Source of the DNA: a virus
Length of the DNA: 60,719 bases
Strand: one strand, 5' to 3'
IMG/VR virus record: IMGVR_UViG_3300045988_085035
A model generated the notes under the pieces. That model saw nothing but the letters and a program-made list of their open reading frames with translations. It was not told the origin of the DNA and did not search any database. Each line of letters opens with the position of its first letter. The first letter of the stretch is position 1. The position numbers and the translations under genes were made by a program. Positions 20,997 to 23,548 of the stretch are shown here, in pieces.

Positions 20997-21734
20997 ATGG
21001 GAGGTAGAGGCGGCTCTAGTGGTTTTACGGGAAGCACAGCAGCAACGCCGCAGTTCGGTAATAACGTGCTGAGTCCGCAGGATGCGCAGGACTTTAAAAC
21101 CCTGTCAGACTACATGAAGAATACTCACAATATAACAATGGGTAAATCGTTGCAAAACCTTGAATTTAAGACCACACAGCACGTTGCTTCGACAGTTGAT
21201 GATCTGGCTAAGGAATTTCCGCAGGCCGTTGATTCAATCAAAAAGATACAGGCACATGGCGCGCCTAAGGGGTCCTATGCGTGTGCGTCATACGATGGTG
21301 AGCTGAGACTGGGTAACTATTTTAAATCATTCCCTGACTTTAATCGGTCATTTAAACATTCTGTGAAAACTGGATTCCATCCCGCAGGATCTAACCCAGT
21401 GGACGCGGTAGTGTCGCATGAGGCGGGGCACTTGTTGGAACGTGCGTTAATCCGAAAGGCGATAGCATCCGGAAAAGGACAGTTTGGAGGTGCTATGTGG
21501 AATGCATCTACAGAAGCGAAACGGATCGTAAGTCAGGCGTGTAAGGATGTGAAATCTACACCGGGCGGCAAGGGCAGAAAGGTTAATGACCTTATCCGGG
21601 AAGTATCGGGGTACGCTACAAGAAACAGGTCTGAATGCCTGGCAGAGTGTGTATCTGATTACTATTCAAACCGTAGCAATGCGAAACCATTATCTAAAGC
21701 AGTATGGAATCTTTTGAAAAAGGAGCTGGGATAA
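20997..21734 (+). CDS. MGGRGG-leader protein 1 with a C-terminal HExxH metallopeptidase-like domain
   Basis: Starts MGGRGGSSGFTG and contains VVSHEAGHLLE. Its N-terminus is shared with 22101-22880 and 23192-23548. Confidence 0.6.
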   Translation: MGGRGGSSGFTGSTAATPQFGNNVLSPQDAQDFKTLSDYMKNTHNITMGKSLQNLEFKTTQHVASTVDDLAKEFPQAVDSIKKIQAHGAPKGSYACASYDGELRLGNYFKSFPDFNRSFKHSVKTGFHPAGSNPVDAVVSHEAGHLLERALIRKAIASGKGQFGGAMWNASTEAKRIVSQACKDVKSTPGGKGRKVNDLIREVSGYATRNRSECLAECVSDYYSNRSNAKPLSKAVWNLLKKELG

Positions 21735-21911
21735 ATGGAAATGGAGACAAAAGAAGTTCTGGCAAGACTTGAACTGATGAGTAACTGGGTGATTGAGGAC
21801 GAAGATACAGGCGATGTGATTGGACTGAAAGCAGATGCACCGGACAGTATGAAAGCTGAATACGAGAAGTATCTTGAAGAACTACAGTCAACGGAACCGG
21901 TATTGAGATAG
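21735..21911 (+). CDS. Small acidic protein (58 aa, below the ORF-track cutoff); possible cognate inhibitor or immunity protein
   Basis: Its ATG begins immediately after the upstream stop codon (TAA 21732-21734). Hand translation: MEMETKEVLARLELMSNWVIEDEDTGDVIGLKADAPDSMKAEYEKYLEELQSTEPVLR. Confidence 0.4.
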   Translation: MEMETKEVLARLELMSNWVIEDEDTGDVIGLKADAPDSMKAEYEKYLEELQSTEPVLR

Positions 21912-21923
21912 GAGCATAGAACT

Positions 21924-22028
21924 ATGGCAACAAATAAAAATCCGGTCAAGCCTAAAAAGGGTAAGACTACAAAACAGCCACAGAACAATAAAAAGAACAG
22001 AACAAAGCCTGTGTTAAGGGTTGATTAG
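21924..22028 (+). CDS. Very basic 34-aa protein (MATNKNPVKPKKGK...)
   Basis: The SD and start context GGAGCATAGAACTATGGCAACAAA is nearly identical to that of 22901-23122. Confidence 0.4.
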   Translation: MATNKNPVKPKKGKTTKQPQNNKKNRTKPVLRVD

Positions 22029-22053
22029 AAGAGAGCTGAAAAGCTCTCTTTTA
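22029..22053 (+). terminator. Intrinsic terminator ending cassette 1
   Basis: AAGAGAGC-TGAAAA-GCTCTCTT followed by TTT. Confidence 0.6.
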
Positions 22054-22100
22054 TTGTCTTGTAAAATAAAGAACATTTGATATATAATGGGGGTAGAAAA

Positions 22101-22880
22101 ATGGGTGGTAGAGGCGGTTCCAGTGGTTTATCTGCCGGTGGAAGTCCTAACGGACGCGCCGGATCACTGAAAGGGCTTATACAGCAGATAAATAACAATC
22201 AGACTATAAATGGTCCACAATGGATGCATCAGGGCGATTACACTGATGGAAATAACCCGGCATTACTTCAGTACCAGCAGAAAGAGGACGACAAAACTGC
22301 CAACTTCTTAGCAGGTACCGACAATAAAATTGATTTGAATGATCCAGCATACGCAGATGGGTATGTTTATCACGATATCCCGCTGAATAAATTGCTGTTA
22401 CGACTGGGAATCGGAAAAGGGGCTACAGTCCTGTCGGATTCAGACTTTGATGCATATGTCCAGCAGACAGGGCAGCAGGTAATGTACCGAGGATGGGGTA
22501 ATAAAGGTGCGGCAGATAGATTTGTCAATACAACCCACAACCATGTTGGAAATGGGCGGTACGGTGATGGATACTACTTTTCCCCAGATTCGGGAACGGC
22601 GAAAGCTTATTCCGGTGACGGTACAGTAACCAAAATGGCGTTGTCACCGAATGCACGAGTTATCAGTTACAATGACTTGGTATCCAAAATGTCGCAGGTA
22701 AGCAGTAAACTTCAGAACTCATTGAGGCGAACCGGTGGCGGTGGATCTGGGCGTACATTTGCATCTAACAAGGGCGAAGCACAGTACGCATTGAAACTGG
22801 GCTACAATGTTATTGATGTTGGAGGTGGATACCTCTATGGCATTACTAATGACGCATTTGTAGTAAGTAAGAAATATTAA
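22101..22880 (+). CDS. MGGRGG-leader protein 2 with an unassigned C-terminal domain
   Basis: Start moved to the ATG at 22101 so the protein begins MGGRGGSSGLSAG. The C-terminal region contains VMYRGWG and GYYFSPDSG. Its resemblance to ADP-ribosyltransferases is weak. Confidence 0.55.
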   Translation: MGGRGGSSGLSAGGSPNGRAGSLKGLIQQINNNQTINGPQWMHQGDYTDGNNPALLQYQQKEDDKTANFLAGTDNKIDLNDPAYADGYVYHDIPLNKLLLRLGIGKGATVLSDSDFDAYVQQTGQQVMYRGWGNKGAADRFVNTTHNHVGNGRYGDGYYFSPDSGTAKAYSGDGTVTKMALSPNARVISYNDLVSKMSQVSSKLQNSLRRTGGGGSGRTFASNKGEAQYALKLGYNVIDVGGGYLYGITNDAFVVSKKY

Positions 22881-22900
22881 TAATCAGGAGGCATAGAACC

Positions 22901-23122
22901 ATGGCAACAAAAAAGAGAATTGACGAAGCAGCAGAAGCGAGAATCAATGATGCGTATGCAAGAGCAGCTGAAAAGGCTACAGGGATTAAGCCTATGAGTG
23001 ATGATCCTAAGTATAAAGATTTTGGAAAGACTGTAAAAAAGACAACAGCTAAGAAATCTGCTACAAAGAAACCAGCAGTGAAGAAACCGGCAGCGAAGAA
23101 AACTGCCACAAAGAAGAAATAA
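22901..23122 (+). CDS. Lysine/alanine-rich basic protein with a histone-H1-like tail
   Basis: The C-terminus is KKTTAKKSATKKPAVKKPAAKKTATKKK. Its start context is homologous to that of 21924-22028. Confidence 0.55.
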   Translation: MATKKRIDEAAEARINDAYARAAEKATGIKPMSDDPKYKDFGKTVKKTTAKKSATKKPAVKKPAAKKTATKKK

Positions 23123-23136
23123 ACATGATTTTGTTT

Positions 23137-23170
23137 ACCCTCTCCCGAGAAATCAGGCAGAGGGCATTTT
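23137..23170 (+). terminator. Intrinsic terminator ending cassette 2
   Basis: CCCTCT(CC)-loop-(GG)cAGAGGG followed by CATTTTATT. Confidence 0.5.
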
Positions 23171-23191
23171 ATTGTCCGGGAGGGAATGAGC

Positions 23192-23548
23192 ATGGGAGGC
23201 AGAGGTGGAAACAGTGTTTTTACTTCTGGTAACGGCCTGAAAGAATCTGGGCTTGATGTGACATTTCAGGGAGAAACCACAAGATACTACTTTACCAAGA
23301 AAGGTAATGACAATTACTATCAACAGGGTTTCTCAGGAATGCCACAGCCAACGCCCCAGAATATGTCAGCCGCAGAATTTAAACAACGTGTGCTGGCAAA
23401 TGGGGCGGCTGTAAAGGATGTTACAGCAAGCGAGTACAAAGCGGACATGGTTCAACACGGGGTATACAGAAAAGAAATGGATAAATTCCTGAATACTCAG
23501 TGGTATAAAACAGCAGGTCCGCCGCGACATGGCATGAAAGGCCACTAA
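23192..23548 (+). CDS. MGGRGG-leader protein 3 (119 aa)
   Basis: The ATG at 23192 lies 8 nt after GGGAGGG, giving MGGRGGNSVFTSG. The short C-terminal domain has no recognised motif. Confidence 0.5.
   Translation: MGGRGGNSVFTSGNGLKESGLDVTFQGETTRYYFTKKGNDNYYQQGFSGMPQPTPQNMSAAEFKQRVLANGAAVKDVTASEYKADMVQHGVYRKEMDKFLNTQWYKTAGPPRHGMKGH

Follow-up and report, generated by a model that had tools for sequence, protein, structure and literature searches.

A GGRG N-terminal tag on unrelated phage proteins and its association with DUF4417

The joining of a constant N-terminal part to variable effectors encoded beside head genes is an already known logic in phages. The internal proteins IPI-III and Alt of T-even phages carry an N-terminal capsid-targeting sequence, which in T4 is a leader of ~10 residues that gp21, the prohead protease, removes within the scaffold core; the IP locus is hypervariable, and once injected the payloads counteract host defences. 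The MuF-type polymorphic toxins of temperate phages have as their constant part a MuF head domain of ~250 amino acids (aa) (Jamet et al. 2017, PMC5576092), and each of the polyvalent proteins forms a single giant polypeptide (Iyer et al. 2017, PMC5512222). Here we describe three genes, P1, P2 and P3, that lie just upstream of the terminase genes in the virus record IMGVR_UViG_3300045988_085035 and encode proteins with a common N-terminus, MGGRGG(S/N)S, on otherwise unrelated bodies. The whole stretch of 60.7 kb that was analyzed, a temperate siphophage-like genome, is called the window in the following. When all loci were pooled, we found the tag in 224 distinct proteins of 44 unrelated families at ~200 phage loci, almost always beside a gene for a DUF4417 protein, and we tentatively propose that tag and DUF4417 form a module handling polymorphic effectors. 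The T-even internal proteins resemble this system in their short constant N-terminal leader, their unrelated small, basic and swappable bodies, the presence of one ADP-ribosyltransferase (ART) and their late expression. However, the leader sequences are unrelated, the conserved partner here is DUF4417 and packaging of the GGRG proteins is a prediction. The GGRG system shares with the MuF-type and polyvalent proteins the shuffling of variable ART, metallopeptidase and RNase domains encoded beside head and packaging genes, and a constant module at the N-terminus; this module is here an 8-residue tag, and in some relatives it is the DUF4417 domain itself.

The DNA pattern ATGGGNGGNMGNGGNGG was observed at exactly three sites in the window (20997, 22101 and 23192), all on the + strand, while the expectation from shuffled sequences was 0.10 and 0 of 100 shuffles attained three sites. 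These sites are the starts of P1 (20997..21734, +; 245 aa, MGGRGGSSGFTG..., with its tag M-GGRGGSS at 20997..21020), P2 (22101..22880, +; 259 aa, MGGRGGSSGLSAG...) and P3 (23192..23548, +; 118 aa, MGGRGGNSVFTSG...), all of them basic proteins, and a Shine-Dalgarno-like run lies 6-8 nt 5' of each of the three ATGs. The lengths of P2 and P3 are those of the open reading frame (ORF) translations and correct the 260 and 119 aa of a preliminary description of this locus, which had been made from the DNA letters. Its central observation, a shared N-terminus on unrelated C-terminal domains, holds: in all-against-all clustering and in database searches each of the three bodies recovered its own family, with no cross matches, and in metagenomes these families comprise 69 (P1), 149 (P2) and 21 (P3) clusters. 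Since nearly all family members begin with MGGRG[GAS]x[SG], down to 23-45% identity, the start choices are supported. No Pfam domain was found in P1, P2 or P3, including the MuF (Phage_Mu_F / SPP1 gp7) domain; unlike in the MuF-type toxins, the minor capsid protein of the window (Phage_min_cap2) is encoded by a separate gene. Searching the three proteins and the small ORFs between them against Pfam, PHROGs, NCBIfam and PADLOC gave nothing significant save weak PHROG matches for P1, tblastn of P1 and P2 against GenBank phages returned no match, and megablast of the tagged region gave a single 178-nt match only.

Beyond the window, in phages of Firmicutes and Actinobacteria, the mature tag has the consensus G-G-R-G-[GAS]-[SAG]-S-G. 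Its positions G1, G2, R3 and G4 were set by the search pattern, and across the 44 families there is a strong preference for S7 and G8. A scan of viral contigs for ATGGGNGGNAGAGG(N10)GG yielded at least ~93 ORFs with a Shine-Dalgarno site, which fall into 29 unrelated families. As a control we scanned a genome collection and obtained 122 pattern matches, about 110 of which are chance matches in many phyla with no phage genes nearby; the ~10 that pass the ORF, Shine-Dalgarno and tag criteria occur mostly in Clostridia and mostly near DUF4417 or portal/minor-capsid genes. The tagged families are mostly orphans of 64-300 aa with a median isoelectric point (pI) of 10.0 (pI >9 in 37 of 43 families), and in 11 of 43 a basic C-terminal tail is part of the tagged protein itself. 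Recognizable payloads are few: ADPrib_exo_Tox (Pfam, E 2e-16), DUF6883 and P1-like proteins with an HExxH motif. The preliminary description had compared the locus with polymorphic toxins, a constant short leader being set on variable effector-like domains, and had proposed a database search for MGGRGG starts with their genomic context; searches of this kind yielded the 44 families, and these, the Pfam-confirmed ART payload and the insertion or replacement of cassettes among 98-99% identical phages described below agree with the comparison. It had also stated that no function was described for the leader, and our literature search on MGGRG likewise found no phage-related description. Nor did we find a literature description of the exposure of its free end by two routes, of the partnership with DUF4417 or of the spread over phages of two bacterial phyla.

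The tag is omitted from several database records through choice of a downstream start: A25 gp23 (5001-5411 of locus L124), Str01 gp54 (APZ81907; 3001-3411 of L326), Che12 gp2 (~1097-1900 of L327) and Boohoo gp2 (~1134-1985 of L329). For Che12 and Boohoo the annotations of gp2 also leave out a long Gly-rich linker, and the 3' end of the annotated DUF4417 gene is overlapped, in another frame, by the tagged ORF. Awareness of the tag explains this recurrent start-codon annotation error.

In loci picked by DUF4417 homology alone we found extended forms of the tag. Many genes of the same families begin there with (GTG)M-V-E-N-L-Q-F-F-GGRGASSG, ...IDLQFF-GGRG, ...INLQFF-GGRG or ...LHLQFF-GGRG rather than with M-GGRG, and ATG starts, GTG starts and x(N/D/H)LQFF|GGRG extensions coexist inside single families. 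The extension is carried by 22 of the 224 tagged proteins; P1, P2 and P3 of the window start with M-GGRG and have none. Methionine aminopeptidase takes off the initiator Met before Gly. The (N/D/H)LQFF extension of the relatives fits the cleavage motif MLxx(D/N)LQ(F/L)F'A(S/H)KK published for the Firmicute protease Prp, whose substrates are ribosomal protein L27 and the capsid and scaffold proteins of phage 80alpha (PMC9405229; PMC5744158), although the residue after the cut is Ala in those substrates and Gly here. There appear to be two routes to one and the same GGRG end, Met removal or a predicted Prp-type cleavage. Because relatives carry NLQFF-GGRG, the functional element is probably the free N-terminus GGRG, which would remain on the protein after processing and not be cut off. 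In this it differs from the T4 leader, as the GGRG peptide lies downstream of the predicted processing site, and also unlike T4, no recognizable prohead protease was found when the head genes of the window were scanned. We also looked for Prp sites on the scaffold, capsid, portal and minor capsid proteins of the window; none of them carries one.

The DUF4417 protein of the window (20349..20936, +; 195 aa, pI 5.3) matches Pfam PF14386 with E 7e-58 and 195.5 bits against a cutoff of 28.9, and its gene precedes P1. The association of tag and DUF4417 was observed from both sides. When tagged ORFs were picked by the tag alone, nearly all of the 93 listed have DUF4417 directly up- or downstream, within ~2.5 kb; when loci were picked by DUF4417 alone, 62 of 80 have, on the same strand and immediately after it, one to four tagged genes with ATG starts, and 12 of the remaining 18 bear a GTG-start or NLQFF-GGRG variant. 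The pair occurs in three settings: before the terminase small subunit gene as in the window, between the genes for portal and minor capsid protein, and in a region of head-completion and tail genes, where in another phage lineage a P3-like gene immediately precedes DUF4417. As adjacency is kept while position and order change, a functional two-gene module is indicated rather than a shared hotspot. The earlier statement that the leader genes adjoin the terminase and packaging genes is right for the window, where they stand before TerS, but the conserved neighbour is DUF4417 and not the terminase. The gene for the ArpU-like late transcription regulator (19705..20103, +; PHROG phrog_36 transcriptional regulator, E 3e-17), upstream of the module, keeps its position in related loci.

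Cultured phages carry the pair as well. We found it in the Streptococcus phages A25 and Str01, in Roseburia phage Jekyll and in the Cluster L phages GuuelaD and Bromden. In the mycobacteriophages Che12 and Hammer gp1 is DUF4417 and gp2 consists of MGGRGG, a Gly-rich linker and an HExxH 'peptidase', so that tagged proteins analogous to P1 lie downstream of DUF4417 there; L5 follows the same plan with a different gp2 body, and Bxb1 has neither gene. Gene 1 of L5 thus encodes DUF4417, and the L5 late promoter fires just upstream of this gene (PMC5712189). Gordonia phage Boohoo gp2 is tagged and annotated as a VIP2-like ART, and a Christensenellales phage has the variant tag MGTRGSSS on a protein in which ART-like R-S-E motifs were recognized by eye. 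Some loci show irregularities. In L5 gene 2 (~1126-2084 of L331) the MGGRGSKGG... ORF stops after ~110 codons and the annotated gp2 goes on in another frame, which suggests either a frameshift in the record or a disrupted, frameshifted gene. ORF29 of S. pneumoniae phage MM1 (3563-4309 of L330), downstream of a ParB-DUF4417 fusion, contains 'MEKVNKINFTL-GGGRGANF', which may be a divergent processing site before a GGRG-like end, and is followed by a 22-codon MGGRGAKL remnant. In Gordonia phage FlyingTortilla the gene after a distant 526-aa ParB-DUF4417 protein is not GGRG-tagged; it encodes gp114 (3247-3534 of L340), a 95-aa protein made up nearly entirely of AKKRPAKK repeats, which resembles the small basic cassette partners. 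A phage with a P3-like/DUF4417 pair has a reverse-transcriptase (RVT_1) gene just upstream of its minor capsid genes (742-1917 of L336).

DUF4417 is a large family (3102 clusters at 50% identity, E up to 1e-3), and in the literature we found passing mentions only, with no assigned function. It has been described as a frequent phage fusion partner of the ParB-CTPase fold, and we confirmed a ParB_N-DUF4417 fusion for P0218. The AlphaFold2 (AF2) model of the window protein (pLDDT 95.6) is alpha/beta and TIM-barrel-like. Structural comparison with the PDB gave weak TIM-barrel-like matches, with EAL, PdxJ and, among several TIM-barrel enzymes, TTHB071 (E >=0.03, TM <=0.41). In a viral structure library the best matches other than DUF4417 itself were phage proteins annotated as queuine tRNA-ribosyltransferase (E 4e-3 to 2e-2, probability 0.8-0.99, TM 0.33-0.57). 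The family profile gave only chance-level matches to PDB sequences. D60 and S89 do not vary in the family, and H55, D87, Q114 and W126 hardly do; this conservation suggests catalysis, and together with the model it points to an enzyme-like protein. We also considered a sortase-like or peptidase-like enzyme, but no structural likeness to such folds was seen. Some relatives are C-terminally fused via a Gly-rich linker to Ribonuclease PF00545 (41.8 bits, barnase-like) or to Ntox37 (32.6 bits), and one DUF4417 is in frame with an MGGRG protein. The toxin fusions are independent support for DUF4417 and variable effectors working together; in them DUF4417 also takes the place that trafficking domains such as MuF have in polymorphic toxins.

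The HExxH motif noted earlier in P1 (SHEAGHLLE) is indeed present and conserved: in the family alignment E142 and H145 are invariant and H141 nearly so, and further downstream E213 is invariant and E217 nearly so. We regard P1 as zincin-like at the motif level only, because no match beyond chance level was found when the family was compared with Pfam, NCBIfam, PADLOC and PDB sequences. The weak PHROG matches mentioned above are to the C-terminal (non-MuF) parts of MuF-like head-morphogenesis or head-protease proteins. For P2, residues R130, G131, H148, G150, G152, D156, Y159, N223 and G225 are invariant in the family, as are the motifs YRG, H-x-G and GDGxYF; some members do not have the Glu of 'GE'. 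The AF2 model of P2 shows tag and linker (residues 4-18) as disordered and the remainder as confidently folded (pLDDT 90.6). Its best-ranked Foldseek matches in the PDB are mostly ART, PARP and PE-toxin chains, all of them weak (E 0.03-3, TM ~0.28), next to one likewise weak cyanophage pre-ejectosome chain, and the family profile against PDB sequences gave chance-level matches only. By hhalign P2 is related, at a probability of 95%, to a sister GGRG family with YHA instead of YRG; in ARTs the first catalytic position typically alternates between R and H. We take a divergent ART-like fold of P2 as probable. We also asked hhalign for homology between P2 and the tagged ADPrib_exo_Tox protein, and the alignment covered the tag only. 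P3 has a basic C-terminus, and no fold was recognized.

Cassettes 1 and 2 each have a promoter-like site and a terminator of their own. Cassette 1 is preceded by a sigma-70-like promoter (TTGACC-17-TACAAT with extended TG; 20967..20995, +) and cassette 2 by another (TTGTAA-18-TATAAT; 22059..22088, +), both of which are pattern matches only, with 10/12 matches in a consensus scan. P1 is followed by a gene for an acidic 58-aa protein (21735..21911, +; pI 4.1) whose start abuts the P1 stop, by a gene for a basic 34-aa protein, 'MATNK...' (21924..22028, +; pI 11.4), and by an intrinsic terminator (22023..22058, +) with a 12-bp stem and a U-run (-17.8 kcal/mol, z -4.8). P2 is followed by a gene for a basic 73-aa protein (22901..23122, +; pI 10.2) with a K/A/P-rich, histone-H1-like tail and a weak HC2 match, and by a terminator hairpin with U-run (23138..23172, +; -16.9 kcal/mol, z -2.4). 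This agrees with the preliminary description, which had listed the acidic ORF directly after the peptidase gene, a small basic gene in each of cassettes 1 and 2 with a common start context, and a terminator for each. The ribosome binding site and start context of the two small basic genes (21912-21935 and 22889-22912) is a near-identical 25-nt sequence, GGAG(G)CATAGAAC(T/C)ATGGCAACAAA; the protein start MA(T/A)(K/Q)KK is also found in TerS and in many cassette partners. Among the loci examined, almost every P1- or P2-family gene has within 12-25 nt downstream a gene for a basic 48-68 aa protein of MATKK/MPAKK type with a K/A/P-rich tail, so that this small gene belongs to the cassette as a conserved partner. 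The gene for the acidic 58-aa protein is confined to one lineage, namely the window and the near-identical L126 and L127, and is missing downstream of other P1-family genes; its product is possibly an inhibitor of P1.

Payloads are exchanged between close relatives. The phage L127, 99% identical to the window, has an additional 164-aa tagged gene exactly between the cassette-2 terminator (23175) and the P3 tag (23189), and in L126, which is 98% identical, that gene replaces P3. By blastn the homology of the window with both breaks at 23175, so that the cassette-2 terminator is also the left boundary of the insertion or replacement. L5, Che12 and Boohoo likewise have differing payloads at the same locus. 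The system therefore shows, as polymorphic toxins do, a constant N-terminal part with C-terminal parts exchanged by recombination, and, as MuF-type toxins do, variable C-terminal domains near head genes, with ART, HExxH, RNase and Ntox37 domains in the wider family. A P2 homologue with a basic 61-aa partner was also found at the end of an ~11-kb island (290-10971 of L121) that encodes an integrase, a helix-turn-helix repressor, a 655-aa protein and a sigma-70-like protein and adjoins ABC transporter genes. No capsid, terminase or DUF4417 genes were found in the island, and since it is without capsid genes and DUF4417 it may be a phage satellite.

We consider it most likely, with a probability of roughly 0.4, that tag and DUF4417 form a module for the handling of polymorphic effectors that are expressed late and delivered with the DNA. 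Each effector would consist of a free GGRGxSSG end, a flexible linker and a variable, usually basic domain, and the cassette would often add a small Lys-rich partner protein. The tag would couple these unrelated proteins to the DUF4417 encoded next to them, which would be expressed together with them, either within the late (virion) operon or at its head, and would recognize or process the tag; the effectors would then enter the capsid along with the DNA and be passed to the next host. We infer a physical interaction of tag and DUF4417, encapsidation and injection. Delivery is favoured by the kinds of payload, as ADPrib_exo_Tox, the annotated VIP2-like ART and HExxH proteins are of kinds known or predicted to be injected, by the weak matches of P1 to MuF-like head proteins and of P2 to ART and pre-ejectosome chains, and by the basic composition and the Lys-rich partners; T4 internal proteins are similarly basic. 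Encapsulin cargo-loading peptides offer an analogy only: there, too, a short Gly/Ser-rich terminal peptide and a flexible linker bring unrelated cargo to one partner, but the partner is the inside of an HK97-fold shell, and the peptides are usually C-terminal and of another motif. Several observations weigh against delivery. Analysis of Str01 virions by liquid chromatography and tandem mass spectrometry listed 12 phage proteins, among them neither the tagged APZ81907 nor the DUF4417 protein APZ81899, while low-abundance contaminants (holin, TerS) were included. The trypsin digest used there would, however, cut after R3 of the tag and fragment a small Lys-rich protein. The proposal in the preliminary description that the leader is a capsid-targeting signal thus finds no confirmation in the Str01 list. 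Furthermore, DUF4417 looks, from its residues and model, like an enzyme rather than a structural adaptor, the promoter-like sites and terminators of cassettes 1 and 2 fit moron-like expression outside the late operon, and the P2 homologue of the 11-kb integrase island is found without DUF4417 or capsid genes.

Alternatively, the tagged proteins might never be packaged and act inside the producing cell, either late or from the prophage as morons, with the GGRG end being a substrate or recognition site for an enzymatic step of DUF4417 (activating, modifying or inactivating the protein at a set time) or for controlled turnover. We regard this as somewhat less likely. The enzyme-like invariant polar residues and the TIM-barrel-like fold of DUF4417, weakly reminiscent of tRNA-guanine transglycosylases (TGT), would suit such a step, as would the promoter-like sites and terminators of cassettes 1 and 2, as would the translational coupling with DUF4417, which suggests co-production in matched amounts, and the tagged protein is off the Str01 list. 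Cassettes 1 and 2, with promoter-like site and terminator between core genes, do resemble phage morons; morons, however, have neither a common protein tag nor a dedicated partner gene, and many relatives couple the first tagged gene to DUF4417. The payload types, the DUF4417-toxin fusions and the siting among portal, minor-capsid and tail genes resemble delivered effectors instead, and strong basicity and Lys-rich partners are not obviously needed by a cytoplasmic enzyme substrate. Payloads of this kind could also belong to a polymorphic toxin-immunity system for bacterial competition, released at lysis as has been proposed for MuF toxins, with tag and DUF4417 serving export or entry and the small downstream genes conferring immunity. 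The bona fide domains ADPrib_exo_Tox, Ribonuclease and Ntox37, the cassette swaps between near-identical phages and the small acidic ORFs after P1 and after the ART of the Christensenellales phage would agree with this. We nevertheless judge it improbable: whatever the payload, most downstream partners are similar low-complexity Lys-rich proteins, unlike specific immunity proteins, most of the 44 families are small and have no recognizable toxin fold, and no secretion or receptor-binding domains were found.

A different chemistry would be implied if DUF4417 were a transglycosylase- or ligase-like enzyme that used the free N-terminal Gly as a nucleophile and attached the effectors covalently to phage DNA or a virion protein, so that they travelled as conjugates and entered with the genome. 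The free alpha-amino Gly end selected via two independent processing routes, the weak likeness of DUF4417 to base-exchanging transglycosylases, its frequent fusion to ParB_N (DNA-/CTP-binding) and the basic nature of the tagged proteins would all fit. Known examples of N-terminal amines that react with DNA as nucleophiles are those of T4 endonuclease V, Fpg and HMCES, and the DNA of some phages has free glycine joined to thymidine. Yet the TGT likeness is weak, with no TGT among the PDB matches, and the window has no recognizable base-hypermodification genes, so we hold such attachment to be very unlikely; if true, it would be a protein-tagging and delivery chemistry that is not known from viruses. 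Finally, the conserved element could be the DNA, providing a start context for coupling (a stop in GGT-AGA, a purine-rich 5' end) and a short recombination homology, with the peptide functionless. We observed that the tag Arg codon is AGA in 77 of 91 tags and CGN in 13, whereas AGA accounts for 17% in gene bodies, and cassette boundaries fall at the tag. The DUF4417 ORF often extends a few bases beyond the ATG of the tagged gene, where a TAG stop is readable across GGT-AGA; this would be a translational coupling and would plausibly explain the AGA excess in part, because the upstream stop can lie across these codons. On the other hand, all Gly codons are used in the tag, with synonymous variation, and GC-rich actinophages use CGC/CGT for Arg; this variation argues for selection on the peptide. 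The peptide is retained with GTG starts and also away from the start codon (NLQFF-GGRG), and conservation reaches S7-G8. The NLQFF variants and the actinophage codons largely exclude a purely nucleotide-level role. A further idea, that the purine-rich DNA of the tag serves as a Shine-Dalgarno site for an in-frame start further on, was rejected since there is no such start within range.

If the pairing of tag and DUF4417 is functional, siphophages of Gram-positive bacteria, with gut Clostridia, streptococci, mycobacteria and Gordonia as the hosts concerned, would have a widespread and unrecognized way to deploy interchangeable effectors. DUF4417, with its ~3100 clusters and as gene 1 of L5, Che12 and Hammer, would gain a testable role, and dozens of orphan families would become candidate anti-host or anti-defence effectors. 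Genetically tractable carriers exist in the L5-like phages and A25. The tag could also serve as an 8-residue handle to load or track the cargo of phage particles.

The gene order of the window places a serine integrase (42-1643, minus strand), a VapE-like primase (15159-17585) and an SNF2 helicase (18317-19708) ahead of the regulator gene. On the other side, P3 is followed by the gp3-like terminase small subunit TerS (23574..24068, +; Pfam GP3_package E 7e-18), TerL (24052-25305; Pfam Terminase_3 E 5e-38), an SPP1-type portal (26488-28050) and the minor capsid protein (28064-29218), and then by an Acb2/Tad1-like protein, the scaffold and the major capsid protein. Between TerL and portal, an unusual insertion in the packaging module encodes a 301-aa protein (25371-26276, +) whose N-terminus is hydrophobic and whose C-terminal part has an Mrr_cat restriction-endonuclease domain (E 5.5e-7). 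The Acb2/Tad1-like protein (29236-29637, +; 133 aa, Acb2/Tad1 hairpin domain, Pfam E 7e-9) could act as a sponge for immune signals made of cyclic nucleotides, and the placement of its gene directly after that of the minor capsid protein recurs in the related phages L333 and L334. It is followed within the head module by a gene for a DUF4406 protein (29650-29970, +; E 1e-5).

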